A stretch of DNA of 47,626 nucleotides, taken from NCBI GenBank assembly GCA_030612045.1, contig JAUWOP010000004.1, forward strand, positions 1 through 47,626, given 5' to 3'. Of the stretch, positions 35,284 through 43,425 are shown in pieces; the first letter of the stretch is position 1; each line of letters begins with the position of its first letter. The DNA comes from Chloroflexota bacterium (GTDB lineage Bacteria; Chloroflexota; Dehalococcoidia; UBA2247; JAUWOP01). Made by a program: the position numbers and the translations under genes. The notes under the pieces were generated by a model, which saw only the letters and a program-made list of their open reading frames with translations, was not told the origin of the DNA and did not search any database.

Positions 35284-36533
35284 TGGGGTGCCTCCAGTTT
35301 TAGTACCACCTACAATAAGAGACTTCCTGCTTTCTCCGCTGGTTGCTCAACCCCTTTTACCTGGTTCTCCTCGTAGTATCTTCTGGCGAAATCTGCCGGT
35401 GTCAGGTAGTCCAGAGAGCTGTGTGGTCGGTAGTTATTGTACTCTCCTCTCCAGGCTTCCACAATGACCTGTGCTTCCTTCCCGTTTCGGAATATCTCGT
35501 GATTCAGACATTCATCCCTCAGCTTATCATTAAAGCTCTCAATGTAGCCATTCTCCCATGGGCTGCCAAGGTTGATGAACAGAGTCTGACAACCAGAACT
35601 CTCTAACCACTGGCAAAGTGCCCTGGCTATAAACTCAGGTCTGTTGTCACTGCGGATATACTCTGGCAACTCCTCTGGTTAAGAATAACCACTCCATTAC
35701 TCGAGTGACTACTGAGGCTGGTATTGAAGGCGCAACCCTGATAGCTAAACATTCCCGAGTATACTTGTCGATGATGACTAGAATCCTGAGCTTCCCACCT
35801 CTTTCAGTCCTGTCCTCAACAAAGTCATAGCTTCAGACATGATTTGGATAGTCCGCTTTATTCACTATTCCTCCTGTTGGCCCCATTCTATGTCTCTTTG
35901 GTCTTCTCTGTGGTAACCCCAGTCCTTCCGATTTCCAGATACGATGGAGCCGCTTCTTATTTACTCTAAAGCCCTCCCGCCCAAGCAGCCCTGTAATCCT
36001 GCGGTAGCCATACCGGCTATGGTGACCTGGCCAGCTCATGTATCCTCTTAACCAGCCCCACTTCATCCCATCGCTTCCTAGCGACATATCTCACCACAGA
36101 CCTTGACACTCCCCTCCAAACTTGCACAGGCATGTCGCTGGGAGCACTTACTCCCCCCTATCAGATACTTCACTGTTGATCTTCTGACAAGAGGGCTTAC
36201 CATTTTTTGAGTTGATTTCCTTAAGCAGCTCATTATCCAATGCCTGCTGGGCCACTATCCGCTTCAGCCTGGCGTTTTCCTCCTCCAGTGCTTTCAAGCG
36301 TTTGAGCTCAGAAAGGGTCATCCCGCCATACTTGCTCTTCCAGCGATGGATGGTGGCCGGTGAAAACTCCATGCTCCCGGGCAGCATCAACCACTGGACA
36401 ACCATCATCAACCTCCTTGAGAATACGGAATATCTGCGCCTCCGAATGCCTTCTTGTTTTCACGATAACCCTCCTGTATTTATTCTACAGGAGTCTCGCA
36501 TTCAATGTGGACCTAATTTCTGGGGGCAGGCCA
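35284..36533 (-). mobile_element. Decayed IS3-family insertion sequence (IS407-group-like), 1250 bp
   Basis: Imperfect terminal inverted repeats TGGGGTGCCTCCAGTTTTAGTACCA and TGGCCTGCCCCCAGAAATTAGGTCCA; flanks gcta/gtta; orfA/orfB remnants with an A6 slippery run near 36203-36208. Confidence 0.9.
35310..36463 (-). pseudogene. IS3 transposase orfA/orfB, frameshifted with an in-frame stop
   Basis: orfA KTRRHSEAQI.. shifts frame before ATIHRWKSKYGGM; orfB RYGYRRI, HV*SYDF (W to stop), SDNRPEF, SPWENGYIESFN, RPHSSL split over frames. Confidence 0.88.
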
Positions 36534-36571
36534 GTTAGCCGACAACTCAGAATGAGAAAGACGATTTCGTG

Positions 36572-36601
36572 TTGACTTGAGTAGAACATATGTGCTAATC
36601 T
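36572..36601 (+). promoter_or_regulatory. Promoter of the portal gene with an overlapping LexA/SOS-like box
   Basis: TTGACT-18 nt-TAATCT with an extended -10 TG; AGAAC-ATAT-GTGCT at 36583-36596, one mismatch to AGAAC-N4-GTTCT. Confidence 0.65.
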
Positions 36602-36629
36602 GAGATTGTCGCAATAGGAGGCACACGCA

Positions 36630-37973
36630 GTGTTGAATGATACATTCCCTCAGAACCTTGCACAGCAGGACAATGCCCGCATGACGAAATACAAGACCAA
36701 CCTTGACTTCTACCACGGTCAGCAGTGGCAGGGGCAGTCCCGGGAAAGAAGGCTTACCTTTAACTACGCCAGGACTGTCATTGACAAGACTACTTCATAC
36801 TTAATGAGCAGTGTTACACCCACAGTTACACCCTTAGACGATTCCCCCGAGGAGAAGGCACGAGCGCAGCGCTGTGAGTTTCTTATCCAGCAAATCTATT
36901 ACGATAACGACCTTGACCTCTTAGACTTCGATTCGGAGATTGATTGCTCAGTCCTTGGTGACGGCTGCTTTAAGGTGATTTGGGATTCAGTCCGAGGCAA
37001 GGTCAAAGTTACCGCTCCAGATATCCAGGGGATATACGCTTGGTGGAGTGAGGGGGATATGTCCGACATCACCAGGGTAGCCAGCCGATACACAGTCAAG
37101 AGCCCAGAGTCAGGAGTCACGAGTCAGTGGAAGAGTGGGGGACTCCAGACTATCGTAGAGGACTGGACACCAGAGACCTTTGACCTCTACCAGGACAATG
37201 TCAGGGTGTCCCACCAGGCTAACCCCTACGGCTTCATTCCCTTCGTTATCTACCCCAACATCAGAGAGCCTAAAGACTTCTGGGGCACTTCGGATATTAT
37301 CCCCTTAATCGAGCCACAGCGTGAGCTGAACCGTGCTATATCCCAGCTTTCCAGGATACTGGAGGTATCAGGCAACCCGATAGCCGTCCTTGAGAATGTA
37401 GAGCAGTCAGGCGACATCGCAGTTAAGCCAGGCGCAGTATGGAATATACCCGAGGACGCTAAGGCATACTTGCTTGACTTACTCCAGGGGGGAGGGGTCA
37501 GGCTTCACTTAGAATACATAGATGTTATCTACAGAACCATCCACGACATGGGAGAGACACCCAGGGCAGCCTTTGGAGGCACGGATAGAGACCTCTCCGG
37601 AGCAGCATTACAGATTGAGATGTATTCCCTATTGCAGAAGGTGAGGCGCAAGAGACTCATTCGCTCCGTGGTATATAGGAAGCGCATGGAGATGATGATG
37701 AACCTTCTAAAGATTTACCGTGAAGAGCACTGGAAAAGCTACGAGGGAACGGAGGAGCTACAGCCACATGTGGTTTGGGGAGATGTCCTTCCAGCCGATG
37801 TCCTGCGCAACGCCCAGGCAGAGCAGCTACTTATCCAGGCAGGCGTTCACAGCCACAGACGAGCCATGACAGAGATGGGTATCATCAACCCCGATGACGA
37901 ATTTAATCAGTGGCTTGAGGAAGACAGAGCTATCAGAGAAATGAGAGAGGAGGTAAAGAAAAGTGAGCAATGA
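36630..37973 (+). CDS. Phage portal protein, SPP1 Gp6-like
   Basis: FYHGQQW, FNYARTVID, LGDG, NPYGFIPFV..PN, GTSDI..LI..Q.ELNR, SGAAL; 447 aa; SD aggagg before GTG. Confidence 0.85.
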   Translation: MLNDTFPQNLAQQDNARMTKYKTNLDFYHGQQWQGQSRERRLTFNYARTVIDKTTSYLMSSVTPTVTPLDDSPEEKARAQRCEFLIQQIYYDNDLDLLDFDSEIDCSVLGDGCFKVIWDSVRGKVKVTAPDIQGIYAWWSEGDMSDITRVASRYTVKSPESGVTSQWKSGGLQTIVEDWTPETFDLYQDNVRVSHQANPYGFIPFVIYPNIREPKDFWGTSDIIPLIEPQRELNRAISQLSRILEVSGNPIAVLENVEQSGDIAVKPGAVWNIPEDAKAYLLDLLQGGGVRLHLEYIDVIYRTIHDMGETPRAAFGGTDRDLSGAALQIEMYSLLQKVRRKRLIRSVVYRKRMEMMMNLLKIYREEHWKSYEGTEELQPHVVWGDVLPADVLRNAQAEQLLIQAGVHSHRRAMTEMGIINPDDEFNQWLEEDRAIREMREEVKKSEQ

Positions 37974-38160
37974 TACAGGGAGAGGCACAAGGTTACAACC
38001 CATGACCATTGAGCACCGTAGTAAAGTCAATGTCTATATTACCGTGTCGGAGGCAGCCACCCATCAGGATATTGGCGTTATCGCTTGGCACACCGACGCA
38101 TTAGCCAGGCGAGGCTATGATGTAGAGTGCCACTACAACCAGAAAGACAACAATGCTTAA
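37963..38160 (+). CDS. Small hypothetical protein (apparent paralog of 38696-38875)
   Basis: SD ggaggt, overlaps the portal stop; shared H..L...GY.V pattern. Confidence 0.6.
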   Translation: MSNDTGRGTRLQPMTIEHRSKVNVYITVSEAATHQDIGVIAWHTDALARRGYDVECHYNQKDNNA

Positions 38161-38228
38161 CGAAGGTAAATAGACCGAAGGAAGGGAATATCCTTTAGTC
38201 TAATAACATAAAACGAAAGGAGGTATAG

Positions 38229-38408
38229 ATGTTTAAATGCGAGAGATGCGGAAAGGTGGCAAAACGGCGAAAGCAAGCAGGGTTTGACCTTTGCTCAGCT
38301 TGCCACAAGGAAGCCCTAGCAGAACAAGGGCAGCTCTGGAAAGATATAGCACAGTATTACCATGACCAGGGAGCACATCTCTGTATGGTAACCATGCAGA
38401 GCAAGTAA
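38229..38408 (+). CDS. Small zinc-finger protein, 59 aa (absent from the ORF track)
   Basis: MFKCERCGK..LCSACHKE (CxxC-x14-CxxC); strong SD aaggaggt. Confidence 0.7.
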   Translation: MFKCERCGKVAKRRKQAGFDLCSACHKEALAEQGQLWKDIAQYYHDQGAHLCMVTMQSK

Positions 38409-38447
38409 AGGAGACTTAGGACTTAGGAGAAGGAGGTATAGAGCAAG

Positions 38448-38699
38448 ATGGAGGAAGTAACCAGGGCATCAGTAACCATTGAGGAAATCAGCGACTTCAA
38501 GGCGACAATCCAGAGGAACAAAGACGGCGACCTTATCACCAGGGTGAGCTTCGACACCAAAGACAACCCCGCCACAGTAGCCAGCCTATTCAGGCTACGA
38601 GGAGCAGGGCTTATAACCGCCACATTCACAAGCCCACAGCTACAGCTTAATATGGCAGACAGCAAGGGAAACCACCAGGCAGAGGAGGTAATAGCATGA
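38448..38699 (+). CDS. Hypothetical protein
   Basis: SD aaggaggt; ATGA overlap with the next ORF. Confidence 0.65.
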   Translation: MEEVTRASVTIEEISDFKATIQRNKDGDLITRVSFDTKDNPATVASLFRLRGAGLITATFTSPQLQLNMADSKGNHQAEEVIA

Positions 38700-38875
38700 G
38701 TCAGAACGAGCCGAAGATTAGAATAATCATGTCCAATGTCCAGACCCCAGAAGAGCGAGCGCCTATCCTGCAGCACGCCGAGGAGCTCAGGGAGCAGGGA
38801 TACAAGGTCATTGTCAACTTCATAGCCAACGAAGACGCAGCCAGTATCCTCACCGCTCCACGGTGGGCAGCATGA
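38696..38875 (+). CDS. Small hypothetical protein, 59 aa (absent from the ORF track)
   Basis: MSQNEPKIRIIMSNVQTPEERAPILQHAEELREQGYKVIVNF..; SD ggaggt; ATGA overlaps at both ends. Confidence 0.65.
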   Translation: MSQNEPKIRIIMSNVQTPEERAPILQHAEELREQGYKVIVNFIANEDAASILTAPRWAA

Positions 38876-39183
38876 GACCAGGGTATACCAGCGCAGACAG
38901 AAAGCCTGACAGGCTAGGCAGAACGCACCGCTTCCCCGCAGGCTTCGACCAGCTTTGCGCAGTGATGGAGCAGTGCAGCGAGGAGCCGGGAGGGTGCCAG
39001 GCGTGTTCAGTTCGGGCAGAATGTGAAGCATGGTTTGGACACTATGCCTGTAGTAATGCTAGTGAGCTTAACATTGGGAAAAGCCAGGCGAAACGATGGA
39101 GCCAGGCTAATCACGAGTTCGAGGAAATCAGGAAGAGGAAGAATATTCACCTCTTTGCCCGCGCCTACGAGAAGGGAGGGTAA
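38872..39183 (+). CDS. Cys-rich hypothetical protein (C-x5-C-x6-CxxC-x5-C)
   Basis: CAVMEQCSEEPGGCQACSVRAEC; ATGA coupling. Confidence 0.6.
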   Translation: MRPGYTSADRKPDRLGRTHRFPAGFDQLCAVMEQCSEEPGGCQACSVRAECEAWFGHYACSNASELNIGKSQAKRWSQANHEFEEIRKRKNIHLFARAYEKGG

Positions 39184-39203
39184 CCAATGAGTAAGCAGTC
39201 ATT

Positions 39204-39281
39204 GAGTTATAGAGTTCATAGAGTTGGGGAAGGGTGGGGAACTCAACAAACTCAACAAACTCAACAAACTCAACAAACTCA
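39204..39281. repeat. Composite GAGTT/(AACTCAACA)n repeat, copy 1
   Basis: gagttatagagttcatagagtt-ggggaagggtgggg-(aactcaaca)x4-aactca. Confidence 0.9.
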
Positions 39282-39362
39282 GCCACCCCAGTCACCCACC
39301 TTGACAGCTAGTAGTATAATATGTAAACAAGCAAACAATCTATGAGGAAAGGAGCAAGCAAA

Positions 39363-39866
39363 ATGCCAGAAGAAATAGTCGAAACAAGCAAAAGCACCGC
39401 AGAAGAGCAAACAGTTGAACAGAAGCTGGAGAAGGCTAATACCCGCATTGCAGAGCTTGAAAACCAGAGCGAATCCCTTAAACTAGCCACGGCAGACATC
39501 GATACAATGAGGCTTGCAGAGCAGGCATCGCAAGCAGAAAGCAACCGCTTACAGCAAGCACTTGCGGACACGGTGTCAGGCTATCGAACGCTTGTTACCA
39601 GCCAGCGTCCCGAGATACCAGCCGAGCTTATCCAGGGAAACTCCATCGAGGAAATCACGGCGTCACTGGAAAAGGCTAACGCCATCGTGGAGCATGTTAA
39701 ACAGCATTTCCCGATACCTCCTTCTGGAGTAAACGGCGACAAAGGAGCGGACGCTGTCACCGCTCCCGCCGTTCCTCCAGGCGCACCAGGGAGAGCATCC
39801 CCAGATACCGCAGGCTTGCCAGCCATCGAGAAGATAAAGTTCGGCGTGGCAAACCCAACGGTGTAA
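39363..39866 (+). CDS. Putative phage capsid scaffolding protein
   Basis: Acidic N-terminus, long coiled coil, PAELIQG.SIEEI.ASL, Pro/Ala/Gly linker, short terminal helix; downstream of the portal; SD aaggag. Confidence 0.65.
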   Translation: MPEEIVETSKSTAEEQTVEQKLEKANTRIAELENQSESLKLATADIDTMRLAEQASQAESNRLQQALADTVSGYRTLVTSQRPEIPAELIQGNSIEEITASLEKANAIVEHVKQHFPIPPSGVNGDKGADAVTAPAVPPGAPGRASPDTAGLPAIEKIKFGVANPTV

Positions 39867-39913
39867 AAGAGAAAAGAGAGAAAGAAAGAACCAAAGAAAG
39901 AGAGTAAAGAGAG

Positions 39914-40006
39914 ATGATGATGCAGAGGGGCGGGGGTCCCGGGGTACCAGAGTATATATTAATACTAAGCTTAGTCTTTATACCTTGCATCATCATCGAA
40001 AGATAG
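39914..40006 (+). CDS. Possible 30-aa hydrophobic peptide
   Basis: MMMQRGGGPGVPEYILILSLVFIPCIIIER; no clear SD; bounded by a 12-bp inverted repeat. Confidence 0.25.
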   Translation: MMMQRGGGPGVPEYILILSLVFIPCIIIER

Positions 40007-40032
40007 AGGGGTACTAGGGGGAAAGGAAACCA

Positions 40033-40157
40033 AGTTCATAGAGTTATAGAGTTCATGGAGTTATAGAGTTCCCCCCTCTGTCATTGCGAGGAGCGTAGCA
40101 ACGAAGCAATCTCGGTGGGGTGGGGAACTCAACAAACTCAACAAACTCAACAAACTC
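40033..40157. repeat. Composite repeat copy 2 with nested TGTCATTGCGAG element
   Basis: (gagtt..)n-cccccctc-tgtcattgcgaggagcgtagcaacgaagcaatctc-ggtggggtgggg-(aactcaaca)x3. Confidence 0.9.
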
Positions 40158-40206
40158 GCAGCATTCGTTTCCCGGAAAAAAACTGAGAGAGGCAGGACAG
40201 CAATCA

Positions 40207-40296
40207 GTGGTCAACATTATTTGGGGAATCACTACCGTAATCACAGGAGCAGCACTACTCTTTATACTCGAGCTAATAATTAGAAGAGGAGCCTAA
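40207..40296 (+). CDS. Possible 29-aa single-TM peptide
   Basis: MVNIIWGITTVITGAALLFILELIIRRGA; hydrophobic helix with a basic tail; sits between repeat copies 2 and 3. Confidence 0.4.
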   Translation: MVNIIWGITTVITGAALLFILELIIRRGA

Positions 40297-40297
40297 C

Positions 40298-40464
40298 AGT
40301 TGATAGAGTTATAGAGTTCATGGAGTTCATAGAGTTATAGAGTTCCCACCTCTGTCATTGCGAGGCTTTTCCCCTCTGTCATTGCGAGGAGCGTAGCAAC
40401 GAAGCAATCTCGGTGAGGTGGGGAACTCAACAAACTCAACAAACTCAACAAACTCAAGGAACTA
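40298..40464. repeat. Composite repeat copy 3 with a partially duplicated nested element
   Basis: Near-identical to copy 2; cctctgtcattgcgagg occurs twice (40349, 40373). Confidence 0.9.
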
Positions 40465-40482
40465 AAGAGGAGGTCATAAGCC

Positions 40483-42030
40483 ATGCCAACACTTTTAACC
40501 GACATGCGCACAATGGTCAGGAACGAGCTCAAAGACCTCTCAGCGGACGCCCTGAGTGCTCGCACCGTTGACCGTTGCGAGTCCAACTGGGTAACCGCCC
40601 AGCCAGCGAAGGTAACAGTTACCCATGATACCGACACATACCAGGAGCCTGCAGCCAGCGCCAAGATGGACTGCGCAGCCGACACGCTTGCCGGGTTGCT
40701 GGCATACAAGAACCTTGACACCCCCCTTGACCTTTCCCGCTTTACACACTTGGTAACTTGGGCGAGAGCAAATGTAGGCACAAGCGACACTCTCCTGCAG
40801 GTTGCACTTTCCCCTTACTATAAGTGTGGACAAGCCGAGGTAGTAACGCTCCGACCCAACGCCGCAGGAGACGAAACCAACATTGAAAGGCAAACCCCAG
40901 CAAGCGATGAGCACTGGGATAAAGTGGACGATGTAGTGCCAGATGATGCAGCTACCTATCTACACTCTCAAAACCTTAGTGTATGGGAGAGAGACCTTTA
41001 CGGTATCCCCAGCGGACTAGCCGATGAGCACCCCATATCTCAGGTTAAGGTGAAAATCAGAGCGGCGGGAGTTAGCACCTACGACCACAAGGCAAAGATA
41101 TGTCTTAAGACTCACGGTGTAGTCTACGAGAGCGCAGAGATAGAGATTGCCGATAACGAAGTATGGACTAACTACGAGGAGACATGGGTTGCCAATCCCA
41201 ACACAGGGGCAGCATGGACCAAGAATGAGATAGACGCACTCCAAATTGGAGTCAATGAGTACACTGCGAGCAGCGGAAACTCTACCAAGATAACCCAGGT
41301 ATACTGCGAGGTCACCTATCCAGAGCAGACACCAGAGCTTATTAGCCTACCCGCCCTTATTACTAATGTCTGGAATGAATCTACTGTAGAAGCTAGCCTA
41401 TCCAACCTCTACGATGTCCTGAGTGTAGGGCTTCAGGCTACCGAAGCACTGTCAGCTTGCATCTTCCACTTAGACAACATCAGAGCAGCGAGGTGGGATT
41501 ATCGCTGGACAGATGATGAGCTTGACCAGCACATTAACCACGCCGTGAGAGAGTATTCCTACCATGCCCCCGATGAGAAGACCAGCCCTATTGCCACAGT
41601 AGACGGCAGTCAGGAGGTGGACATCTCCTCACTTGGTGACATAGTGAAAGTCATGAGGGTAGAGTATCCCTTAGACAACAACCCGCAGACATTCCCGAGG
41701 TTCAGTCAGTGGGGAAACACCCTTACCTTAGAGAGCAGCGAAGTCCCCAACGGCAGCAACTGCAAAGTCTACTATGGCGCACTACGCACCCTTACCGCCT
41801 TAGCTACTACCATCCCCGAAAGCGACACCCTTATCATTGCCCTTGGGTCCGCAGGCTACGCCATGCGTGCCTATGCCAGCTACTCCCCATCCATGGCAGG
41901 AGCAGGCAGCCAAACCCCCGCCTACTACCGTACGCAAGCTGAGACACTCCTTGCCCGCTTCTACGACATCCTCAAAAAGCGTGGACGCATGGGCAAGGTT
42001 CGCAACGCCAGCCTCTACGCGCCCCTTTAG
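40483..42030 (+). CDS. Phage head-tail adaptor-like protein with a ~320-aa beta-rich insertion
   Basis: N-terminal LTDMRTMVRNELKD and C-terminal YRWTDDELDQHINHAV..VEYP..TIP..LIIALG look like two halves of an adaptor; SD aggaggt. Confidence 0.6.
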   Translation: MPTLLTDMRTMVRNELKDLSADALSARTVDRCESNWVTAQPAKVTVTHDTDTYQEPAASAKMDCAADTLAGLLAYKNLDTPLDLSRFTHLVTWARANVGTSDTLLQVALSPYYKCGQAEVVTLRPNAAGDETNIERQTPASDEHWDKVDDVVPDDAATYLHSQNLSVWERDLYGIPSGLADEHPISQVKVKIRAAGVSTYDHKAKICLKTHGVVYESAEIEIADNEVWTNYEETWVANPNTGAAWTKNEIDALQIGVNEYTASSGNSTKITQVYCEVTYPEQTPELISLPALITNVWNESTVEASLSNLYDVLSVGLQATEALSACIFHLDNIRAARWDYRWTDDELDQHINHAVREYSYHAPDEKTSPIATVDGSQEVDISSLGDIVKVMRVEYPLDNNPQTFPRFSQWGNTLTLESSEVPNGSNCKVYYGALRTLTALATTIPESDTLIIALGSAGYAMRAYASYSPSMAGAGSQTPAYYRTQAETLLARFYDILKKRGRMGKVRNASLYAPL

Positions 42031-42069
42031 GTCTCTAAGCTATTAATTTTAGAATTCTTCCATCATCTC

Positions 42070-42240
42070 TTATTTATCTCTCACACGTACAATATGCTCA
42101 TACATTGAGACATTTATTTTATCAACGTCCCTCTCTATATAGATGGGGCAATAAACAGTTTGGCACTTACCTGCAAGGCACCTCACTCTCTTATCATACG
42201 GACATTCTCGGCTTACCTCACTTATTTCTATGACCTCCAC
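42070..42240 (-). CDS. Possible 56-aa four-Cys protein (absent from the ORF track)
   Basis: (M)EVIEISEVSRECPYDKRVRCLAGKCQTVYCPIY..; aaaggagg upstream but directly adjacent to the GTG. Confidence 0.35.
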   Translation of the reverse strand: MEVIEISEVSRECPYDKRVRCLAGKCQTVYCPIYIERDVDKINVSMYEHIVRVRDK

Positions 42241-42401
42241 CCTCCTTTCAATAAAAGGGGCTTCCCGCCTTTCCTAGCCATCGGACGATTCTACCATATT
42301 TACACCACGAAATAAACCTTTAGTCTCTTACAATTATCCACATATCCATCACTGTCCACAAAGAAAGAAAGGTAACCGTTCACTTGAACGAGTACTCTAC
42401 A

Positions 42402-42431
42402 TTGACAGTCGGTGAGATAAACTATTATAAT
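42402..42431 (+). promoter_or_regulatory. Putative sigma70 promoter of the CoA-transferase genes
   Basis: TTGACA-18 nt-TATAAT; upstream palindrome cgttca-ct-tgaacg at 42377-42390. Confidence 0.65.
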
Positions 42432-42527
42432 ACCCGCAGAAGTAGGTTAATTAAGGAACTGTCAAGATGAGGCACCTTTAGTGATGTCACCTATAGTCAG
42501 TTGTATGAGTTATCATGCAATTCCCTT

Positions 42528-42625
42528 CTGTTATTGCGAGCAATCCGAAGACGCAAAGCTAATCTATTTTCTCCTACCGTGATATTGGCATTGTGTCTTT
42601 GTCGGTATGCTCCCTGCAGTGACAT
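42528..42625. repeat. Degenerate inverted pair of TGTCATTGCGAG-type repeats
   Basis: ctgttattgcgagcaatccgaagacgcaaagctaatct ... ctgcagtgaca; shares cgaagacgcaa.gctaatct with the 3100-3142 copy (reverse strand). Confidence 0.55.
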
Positions 42626-42684
42626 AGTGTGGTATCTTTGTAAGGTACTATAATTAACTTTGGTTAAAGGAGAGTGCTAGTTAT

Positions 42685-43425
42685 ATGGACAAAGTGTACT
42701 CCAGTGTAGAGGAGGCGGTAGCAAATATAGAAGATGGAGCAACAATAGCAATACCGGGGTTTTTTGCTGCCGGTGTTCCCAGAGTTTTGCTCCAGGCGCT
42801 AATTAAGAAAGGCACAAAGAATCTTACATTAGCATGTGGGTGTGGACCAATGCTGGGAGCTGCTGAAGAGTTGACTCAGCTTGTAAAGAATAAACAAATT
42901 AAGAAGGTGATAGATTCCTATGGGCTTTATCGCTCTGCTACCAAAGGTCTCCAAGATCCTTTTGAACAAGCGGTTAGGGCTAGTGAGATAGAGCTAGAGG
43001 TTTATCCAATGGGGACTCTGGCAGAAAAGTATCGAGTAGCTGGAGCTGGAATCCCTGCTTTCTATACTCCAACTGGAGTAGGCTCGGTAGTGGAAGAGCA
43101 TATTGTTACCAACATTATAGCAAATCGAAAGCCGAAGGAGACAAGGGTATTTGATGGGAAAAAGTATGTCTTGGAATATGCCCTGAAGACAGATTACGCC
43201 TTCATTCACGCCTACATGGGGGATAGAGAAGGTAATCTGGTATATAGGAAGACAGCGAGGAACTTTAACCCTGTAATGGCCACGGCAGGCAAGATAACCA
43301 TTGCTGAGGTTGAGAAGCTGGTGGAATCAGGCAAAATTGAACCAGACTGCGTTCACACCGCCGGGGTATACGTACAGCGTGTGGTAGAGGTACCTCGAGT
43401 CAGTTTTGCTATAACTATAGACTAA
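42685..43425 (+). CDS. 3-oxoacid CoA-transferase subunit A
   Basis: PMGTLAE..R..GAGIPAFYTPTGVG, GNLVYRKTARNFNP, IAEVE. Confidence 0.93.
   Translation: MDKVYSSVEEAVANIEDGATIAIPGFFAAGVPRVLLQALIKKGTKNLTLACGCGPMLGAAEELTQLVKNKQIKKVIDSYGLYRSATKGLQDPFEQAVRASEIELEVYPMGTLAEKYRVAGAGIPAFYTPTGVGSVVEEHIVTNIIANRKPKETRVFDGKKYVLEYALKTDYAFIHAYMGDREGNLVYRKTARNFNPVMATAGKITIAEVEKLVESGKIEPDCVHTAGVYVQRVVEVPRVSFAITID

Follow-up and report, generated by a model that had tools for sequence, protein, structure and literature searches.

The closest described counterparts of the DNA considered here are gene transfer agents (GTAs), cryptic prophage remnants, phage satellites and short-tailed phages. RcGTA of Rhodobacter capsulatus is a siphovirus-like GTA, and the capsid-forming members of one satellite group, the phage-inducible chromosomal islands (PICIs), keep their capsid gene. 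The stretch analysed, called the window throughout, is an entire contig (C28; 47,626 nt) of a Dehalococcoidia metagenome-assembled genome (MAG) of 1.62 Mb in 85 contigs, scored at 97.19% completeness and 1.49% contamination. On its plus strand, at 36630-42030, it carries a phage-derived module with portal, scaffold-family and adaptor genes, placed between the remnant of an IS3-family insertion sequence and CoA-transferase genes. On a modest balance of probability, this module arose by deletion from a phage-derived gene set that is GTA-like and passed on vertically, and it could not build heads alone.

Relatives of the gene set are like GTAs in having packaging and structural genes without integrase, replication or lysis domains among the open reading frames (ORFs) scanned, and in being mostly present as one match per genome, clade-wide, under purifying selection, co-diverging with the host and intact when dispersed. 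They are unlike RcGTA in that the parts are of the short-tailed SU10 type with a gp27-like hub, the scans run detected no tube or tape-measure family, and the host belongs to the Chloroflexota. The window's copy has no capsid gene and would therefore be no working GTA by itself, a lack that also sets it apart from the capsid-forming PICIs. Cryptic prophage remnants are similar in their deleted essential genes, and the adjacent decayed insertion sequence, the distribution of parts over three contigs and the differing deletions in other genomes all fit that comparison; however, the six remaining ORFs are intact, their divergence is like that of housekeeping genes and the parent element has seemingly long been domesticated. 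Like phage satellites such as P4 and the PICIs, the module holds only some of the genes for heads and packaging and could in principle depend on another phage for the rest, but the window was found to have no integrase or replication gene and none for helper sensing or interference, and the loci do not form one mobilisable island.

Escherichia phage SU10 is a Kuravirus with structures 7z47 and 7z4b (PMC9509320). The window's adaptor has the SU10 fold (Z 10.2 over 166 residues against 7z47_B) and the capsids of relatives score above the SU10_MCP cut-off; in contrast to SU10, the adaptor has an insertion of about 320 residues, the tail tip of relatives has a hub like gp27, Mu gp44 and VgrG, and no nozzle family was detected. 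One related locus, L175, is an intact temperate prophage, whereas the window has an insertion sequence remnant before the portal gene and no capsid or hub gene, and the terminase genes lie on another contig. The Dehalococcoides IME1 element (10.64898/2026.09.15.751708) was considered and set aside as a different element, since it is described as without tailed-phage hallmark genes. A literature search that covered sources other than subscription journals found no description of this gene set, or of a GTA, in Dehalococcoidia or Chloroflexota.

The module and the gene set of its relatives

Portal relatives with 52-60% identity were found in 157 stretches of species-representative genomes and in 78 viral contigs; the best 80 of the 157 genome stretches were kept, all from Dehalococcoidia or Chloroflexota MAGs. 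Clustering of 2,266 ORFs of the related loci gave families (numbered c4, c6 and so on) and a conserved order: host RNase H plus zinc-ribbon gene, small and large terminase subunit genes (TerS and TerL), variable cargo, a helix-turn-helix (HTH) gene, portal, scaffold, capsid, in some loci decoration, adaptor, c11, c16 or c23, the c6 hub, c7 and host genes. The full set of relatives comprises TerS, TerL, an HTH regulator, portal, scaffold, a 306-aa SU10-type capsid, decoration or lectin-like genes, an SU10-type adaptor, c11, c16, hub and c7. In the source genome this set is scattered, with TerS and TerL on contig C63, the HTH gene on C53, and portal, scaffold and adaptor in the window. The order in the window, scaffold, no capsid, adaptor and none of c11 to c7, is colinear with the ancestral one. 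Deletions associated with repeats would have removed the capsid gene and the tail-tip genes from c11 to c7, as repeats resembling repetitive extragenic palindromes (REP) or miniature inverted-repeat transposable elements (MITE) lie at both junctions, and the copy that remains could presumably not assemble heads by itself.

The portal gene (36630-37973, plus strand) is intact, encodes 447 aa, and has a GTG start with AGGAGG 8 nt upstream. Its product passes Pfam SPP1_portal (PF05133) at E 2.7e-19, with 69.9 bits against a cut-off of 25.5, and residues 11-435 cover profile positions 5-413 of 416. It also matches phrog_64 (portal; E 1e-29) and the family profile of the relatives (E 1.6e-199), but has no sequence match to solved structures. 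Among 5.8 billion proteins the closest portal has 61% identity, and at least 4,227 proteins match at E 1e-50 or better.

The scaffold gene (39342-39866, plus strand) is also intact and encodes a probable head scaffolding-family protein of 174 aa, or of 167 aa from the ATG at 39363, a more plausible start that has AGGAAAGGAG before it. On its own the ORF matches PHROG scaffold families weakly (phrog_233 at 0.015, phrog_1793 at 0.016). Against the profile of 139 proteins located between the portal and capsid genes of relatives it scores E 4.6e-26. Among 61 aligned members of this family, 22 match phrog_233, seven phrog_1793 and three phrog_9857, all annotated as head scaffolding; the best family E value is 1.4e-8, and generic coiled-coil families match too.

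The third gene (40483-42030, plus strand) is intact and encodes a head-to-tail adaptor of 515 aa, much longer than the 196-226 aa of relatives; its ATG start is preceded by AGAGGAGG. The protein falls slightly below the cut-off of Pfam SU10_adaptor (PF24175; 25.7 bits against 27), which the 196-210-aa adaptors of relatives pass at 40.2 and 36.5 bits. It matches the relatives' profiles for c4, the adaptor, at E 5.1e-52 and for c15 at E 4.2e-39. An AlphaFold model built on a 96-row alignment (predicted local distance difference test score, pLDDT, 78.3) was compared with solved structures by VIA-align and matched adaptors of short-tailed phages: 8jov_G at Z 12.2, 9k09_d at 11.7, 9nwi_A at 11.4 and SU10 7z47_B at 10.2. 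These four matches cover 162-170 aligned residues (162-178 over the adaptor matches at Z 10-12) and reach from model residues 1/3 to 510/515, and the modelled protein has the helical core of the adaptor fold, formed from N- and C-terminal helices, plus a beta domain. The alignment is conserved at M8 and then again from W342. The N-terminal helix corresponds to about residues 1-38 and the adaptor body to residues 339-515 (41497-42030); the body has no sequence match to solved structures. As the structural match spans both ends of the model and M8 and W342 are conserved, the additional sequence is an insertion, and the 515-aa protein is, on its predicted structure, an SU10-type adaptor with about 320 residues inserted between the N-terminal helix and the body. 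Fusion of a domain to the N-terminus was considered and is ruled out by the adaptor match at both ends.

Within the insertion, residues 113-280 (40819-41322, plus strand) form a beta-sandwich domain with a fold like that of carbohydrate-binding modules (CBMs) and jelly rolls, with pLDDT mostly above 90. It matches the Fbs1 sugar-binding domain (Z 10.7) and CBM61 (Z 9.9), Foldseek gives matches to CBM4/16/61, and the sequence matches phrog_2448 at E 1.3e-9. BLAST finds homologs of the domain at the N-terminus of several otherwise unrelated proteins of related elements, those of cluster c15 and others with 611-1046 aa. Among 7,999 scored candidates from the 5.8-billion-protein database, eight other proteins of 283-902 aa match, all through the inserted domain only.

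The genes missing from the window are present in relatives. The 306-aa capsid matches phrog_212 at E 2.6e-73 and scores above the cut-offs of SU10_MCP, GP7 and Phage_capsid. Decoration or lectin-like genes between capsid and adaptor are variable. The c6 protein, of 667 aa near the end of the cluster, gives a model with pLDDT 87.8 (m5a4f0ed6b93c, L064:8176-10179) that aligns with baseplate hub and spike proteins across some 345-360 columns, namely 7b5h_AJ (E 2.1e-17), Mu gp44 9ki1_G, 1wru, 3d37, VgrG and T4 gp27. It combines an all-beta N-terminal half with a hub region like gp27, Mu gp44 and VgrG, and stands beside an adaptor of short-tailed-phage type, an unusual mix.

An earlier reading made from the sequence alone, without database searches, had described uninterrupted head-module ORFs for a portal, a scaffold and an adaptor, with no terminase, capsid, tail, integrase or replication gene. 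The Pfam, PHROG and family-profile scans of the window agree with this, the scaffold call holds in the family-profile test and the adaptor call in both the profile and structure tests. The description as terminase-less stands for the window but not for the genome, where intact terminase genes are found on C63: TerS (119 aa) at C63:2174-2533 and TerL (466 aa, with Terminase_6C) at C63:2608-4008, the latter 66% identical to a TerL of a viral contig. The genes flanking them are two of the PEBP family and one like SNF2/PLD helicases. Relatives have an HTH gene before the portal gene, and its homolog in the source genome adjoins tRNA-Thr on C53. The 1,113-aa protein encoded directly after TerL (C63:4583-7924, minus strand) has PLD-like, SNF2/ResIII and Helicase_C domains and is possibly a defence-type helicase-nuclease.

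Distribution and inheritance of the family

The sequence-only reading had also stated, as unverified, that portal-scaffold-capsid-adaptor clusters recur in Dehalococcoidia. This is correct, and they are widespread: in an even sample of the class (401 genomes, 299 of high quality; E 1e-20 or better) the portal is present in 232 genomes (183 of the 299) and the capsid in 218 (172 of the 299). These tallies include the source genome and one unpublished genome, G263, without which they are 231/400 and 217/400. Both genes occur in 205 genomes, the portal only in 27 and the capsid only in 13, nearly always with one match per genome. Presence of the portal is structured by clade, with 21/25 genomes in f11, 23/25 in f21 and 11/12 in f25, but 0/25 in f27 and 0/11 in f29.

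Ratios of nonsynonymous to synonymous divergence (dN/dS), calculated by the Nei-Gojobori method among genome loci for pairs with 0.05 < dS < 1.5, are 0.103 for the portal (385 of 2,926 pairs usable), 0.096 for the capsid (655 of 1,378), 0.129 for TerL (26 of 136), 0.168 for the adaptor (201 of 1,081), 0.170 for c6 (84 of 741) and 0.291 for the scaffold (431 of 2,415), and the values for these element genes are rough because the dS of relatives is near saturation (median about 1.2 for element genes, the DnaJ-flank clade excepted), which counts against the reading given at the outset. The flanking genes DnaJ and GpsA have ratios of 0.151 (23 of 55 pairs) and 0.134 (18 of 45). In the DnaJ-flank clade, portal dS tracks DnaJ dS (r 0.95 over 17 non-independent pairs; medians 0.59 and 0.65) and the dN of the portal is lower than that of DnaJ; capsid dS likewise follows GpsA dS (r 0.93 over eight non-independent pairs). 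Compared with the same relatives, the source genome has identities of 56% for the portal and 67% for TerL, against 57% for DnaJ, 49% for GpsA and 65% for enolase; by this measure its element genes and its housekeeping genes differ from those of relatives to a like degree.

Gene sets that are split and yet intact are found in several relatives. Four of five genomes without TerL beside the portal, in which the portal abuts DnaJ or enolase flanks, have a single TerL elsewhere. In the closed genome G105, TerS-TerL-HTH-portal lies 53 kb from capsid-adaptor-c6-c7, and in the closed genome G058 it lies 170 kb from scaffold-capsid-adaptor-c6-c7, on opposite strands. Nine further genomes of genus g20 have portal and capsid 43-88 kb apart, by the positions in the match table. 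Integrase, replication and lysis Pfam domains were found in none of 45 otherwise unannotated ORFs (at least 70 aa) within 13 loci, although lysis genes could be unrecognisable. Homologs of the L175 integrase occur in three of the 158 related loci, none of them within a chromosomal cluster.

Because of purifying selection, host co-divergence, split but intact gene sets and the lack of integrase, replication and lysis domains among the ORFs scanned, it is well supported, at the level of gene sequences, that the family behaves in many relatives like a domesticated GTA-like element that is passed on vertically, and not like an active prophage. The proposal that the module is domesticated or GTA-like and not debris thus carries over to the family, with dN/dS near 0.1 and co-divergence, while the copy in the window is best read as a deletion derivative. 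This wider family is a more interesting lead than the cut-down copy: more than half of the sampled Dehalococcoidia carry, mostly as one match, a set that evolves as slowly as housekeeping genes, co-diverges with its chromosomal neighbours and remains intact when split, traits that together are the signature of phage domestication in GTAs. Particles, if any are made, would allow genes to pass between members of a group that matters for organohalide respiration and for the carbon cycle of the subsurface.

The origin of the window's copy

Relatives have their 306-aa capsid gene at a position that in the window is a gap of 616 nt (39867-40482), with two direct copies of a composite repeat (40025-40165 and 40290-40470) and an ORF of 58 aa (40120-40296). 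The end of the module (42031-42684) is non-coding where relatives have c11, c16, the hub and c7, and contains a REP-like piece near 42520-42560. The three gaps and the sequence upstream of the portal gene contain no remnant of a capsid or other element gene, only weak matches at chance level. Among the 158 related loci, 137 have a scaffold match and at least 1.1 kb beyond it, 17 end too early and four have no scaffold match. The capsid gene directly follows the scaffold gene in full in 131 of the 137 (L156, with two profile pieces, counted as full) and is cut at codon 46-52 in the other six; the capsid start is missing in none, and the window is the exception.

The composite repeat is REP/MITE-like and consists of GAGTTNNNN 9-mers, a hairpin core (GTCATTGCGAGG...CGAAGCAATC) and AACTCAACA 9-mers. 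A partial copy with the 9-nt AACTCAACA units lies at 39196-39290, and pieces at C63:1942-2014 and C63:4098-4136 flank TerS-TerL. The repeat is found on most contigs and at many contig ends (393 BLAST rows from three queries). Every phage-derived gene block of the source genome is flanked by it.

The stretch is present as Logan contigs in four runs of one study, one of which may be the source sample and none of which is listed as RNA. The pieces listed cover 36476-39261/2, 39252 to 40087, 40107 or 40148, and 40428 onward within a contig of 7,012 nt; in all four runs contigs end in the partial repeat at 39196-39290. No listed piece in the four runs bridges 39261/39252 beyond the repeat or spans 40148-40428, and therefore the junctions rest on the MAG assembly alone. 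The contig could be chimeric at the repeats, with portal, scaffold and adaptor genes not truly adjacent and the apparent deletions produced by assembly shortcuts; the unbridged repeats and the summed depth in repeat bins, 10-30 times that of the flanks, are in keeping with this. The idea is nevertheless very improbable. The piece with the scaffold gene continues for 220-280 nt downstream without a capsid start in all four runs, and adjacency of scaffold and capsid is therefore truly broken; the unique pieces have similar word depths within each run (27.8, 22.6 and 32.2 in X1, for example) and their order agrees with the ancestral one. An assembly with large k or paired ends would also be able to cross the repeats, given their length of 60-160 nt. 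Joints with sides of only 20-23 nt within repeats (39264 to 40375 in four runs, 39255 to 42528 in three) were set aside as signal from repeats or other organisms.

A search of the rest of the genome for a cognate terminase and capsid, proposed with the sequence-only reading, found the terminase on C63 but no capsid. When 28 cluster profiles were compared with the 27,682 stop-to-stop ORFs of the source genome, portal, scaffold, HTH, adaptor/c15, TerL and TerS matched, and there was no match for capsid, c6, c7, c8-c12, c16 or c18. Neither capsid nor hub was found by tblastn, and no capsid in the class-wide search; Pfam PF05065, PF17236 and PF20911 were silent, the latter two also in 14 control genomes. 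With c11, c16, the hub and c7 not found, the particle gene set found in the source genome is incomplete. Such silence is also what would be seen if the element were complete and its capsid, c11, hub and c7 genes lay elsewhere in the chromosome, unassembled or unbinned, so that the MAG only made the element look capsid-less. Relatives commonly have split loci, which are conserved, and the source genome already has three separate loci, its six remaining genes are intact with no sign of relaxed constraint on the portal, repeats stand at many contig ends, the unique sequence that holds the scaffold gene runs for only about 850 nt from repeat to repeat, and the shortest contig of the MAG is 2,241 nt. 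Even so, a hidden capsid gene is rather unlikely: with a colinear order, two separate translocations would be needed where deletion needs none, the adaptor travels with capsid and hub in both split genomes read (G105 and G058), and the MAG is nearly complete by its score while tblastn, profiles and Pfam are all silent.

Several further findings weigh against a deletion derivative of a vertically inherited set. In the taxonomic order to which the source genome belongs, the family looks like active prophages, is patchy (5/20 genomes) and is multi-copy in one genome. L175, from that order, has an evident temperate phage layout, with tyrosine integrase, HNH, methyltransferase, TerS, TerL, portal, scaffold, capsid, adaptor, c11, hub and a lectin-like fibre; the evidence of vertical inheritance comes from other taxonomic orders. 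Portal identities between these orders also fail to follow taxonomy cleanly. The fragmentation of the MAG, with repeats at many of its contig ends, means that a short repeat-flanked contig with the capsid gene could have been dropped. The insertion in the adaptor folds confidently with both adaptor halves preserved, and in the model it looks like a selected design rather than damage. The loss of conserved residues from the portal is not excessive, as it keeps 82% of those columns whose conservation within the main clade is 90% or higher. Finally, all six remaining element ORFs (portal, scaffold, adaptor, HTH, TerS and TerL; 5,565 nt) are intact, and as 4.4% of point changes would create a stop codon, the chance that none would have arisen is 0.087 for a neutral divergence of 1% and 0.008 for one of 2%, assuming uniform substitutions and ignoring insertions and deletions.

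The six intact ORFs exclude a long-dead remnant, which leaves a very recent loss or some continuing use of the genes that remain; judged from the sequences, constraint on them held until very recently or still holds. The conserved-column test had at first suggested decay, since the source genome scores lowest of all for portal, adaptor and TerL, and for scaffold and TerS every relative except one scores higher. This reading was dropped, as ten further lineages outside the main clade score alike (73-89% of those portal columns kept).

If the remaining genes are useful, the capsid-less set might be kept for a function of its own, either hijacking the capsid proteins of a related phage in the manner of a satellite or poisoning assembly as an anti-phage system. 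Under neutrality the intact ORFs fit only about 1% divergence or less, and the adaptor architecture is unique, as no other protein of 283-902 aa among the 7,999 candidates shares more than the inserted domain. Related active prophages in the same taxonomic order could be helpers or targets, and the gap between TerL and HTH in relatives collects defence-type cargo (AbiV, NYN, SocA/Panacea, ThsB-TIR). This is quite unlikely all the same. The Pfam and PHROG scans found no integrase, replication, excision or known helper-interference gene in the window, the three scattered loci are not linked into a mobilisable unit, and the layout is in no other genome searched, which leaves conservation unsupported. 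Other capsid-less copies are different deletions, as expected of decay: L033 has portal then adaptor with scaffold and capsid absent, L040 has a truncated portal then adaptor, and G247 (99% complete; L191, C10:6403-11836) has HTH-portal-c11-hub, with scaffold, capsid and adaptor profiles unmatched on the 12.8 kb read and no capsid match anywhere in the genome.

These differing deletions show a pattern that fits sporadic decay and not a conserved capsid-less design. The suggestion that the capsid-less state is a kept architecture is contradicted by the 137 loci and by these independent deletions, and that of a satellite-like module finds no integrase, replication or helper-interference gene at 35.2-42.7 kb to stand on. 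The annotation of the module is corrected to a capsid-less and tail-tip-less derivative of a larger set, with the terminase elsewhere in the genome and a satellite unsupported. A bolder version, tentative and on balance doubtful, is that the class has a vertically inherited particle system of SU10 parts, which would package DNA by means of a TerS and TerL of its own and would be the first of the GTA-like elements in the Chloroflexota. This lineage would have remodelled it, keeping portal, scaffold and an adaptor with twelve sugar-binding domains under selection, to work either with a capsid gene hidden in unassembled DNA or by using or blocking the capsids of the related active prophages of its taxonomic order.

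Flanking genes and variable parts of related loci

Between the portal and scaffold genes are six small putative ORFs of 65, 59, 83, 59, 106 and 52 aa (37963-39345, plus strand), the last of which consists of repeat sequence; relatives lack this block, and their scaffold gene is directly 3' of the portal gene. The six match no Pfam or PHROG family and have no tblastn counterpart in the 158 related loci, and searches of the gap were empty. Two are rich in cysteine, at 38229-38408 (59 aa, CxxC...CxxC) and 38863-39183 (106 aa, with a CxxC cluster). A promoter and terminator scan of the module was unremarkable, with 10 promoter-like sites against 6.0 expected and three terminator-like sites against 5.9 expected.

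Upstream of the module, the ribosomal superoperon occupies 14429-35181 on the plus strand (rpsL, rpsG, fusA, rpsJ, rplC ... secY, adk, map, rpsM, rpsD, rpoA, rplQ, truA, rplM, rpsI). Between rpsI and the portal gene is the decayed IS3-family insertion sequence (35310-36411, minus strand), which had been described from sequence alone as full of lesions and is indeed in three ORF fragments, at 36148-36411 (HTH_Tnp_1), 35833-36087 (HTH_21) and 35310-35669 (rve_3). Its summed depth in Logan contigs is raised, as expected of a repeated element, and 42308-42568, beyond the module, is also a high-depth bin. The CoA-transferase genes begin at 42685; upstream of them, at 42402-42431, is a perfect 12/12 match to a sigma-70-type promoter (TTGACA, 18 nt, TATAAT).

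The gap between TerL and HTH in relatives is a site of variable cargo. Most loci have one or two TIG-domain proteins of 500-800 aa there, often with an HTH_17 gene on the opposite strand, and other cargo includes AbiV-HEPN, NYN, SocA/Panacea, ThsB-TIR, HNH, and an acetyl-CoA synthetase with a YaaH-type transporter (examples at L026:5692-7734, L031:2490-2858, L066:2086-2682 and L004:2773-5365).

The six cut capsid genes are at L015:7805-7993, L018:4446-4592, L026:11879-12070 and L066:11950-12135 and in L095 and L134, and this codon is also where the contigs of L003 and L030 end. In the four cut loci inspected the next gene encodes a large serine recombinase (Resolvase, Recombinase and Zn_ribbon_recom) on the opposite strand. 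In L066 foreign genes fill over 10 kb beyond the recombinase, and the capsid gives two matches in several f51 genomes. The capsid gene, highly conserved as it is, appears to serve a mobile element as an attachment site, by analogy with the intervening elements of sporulation and heterocyst genes.

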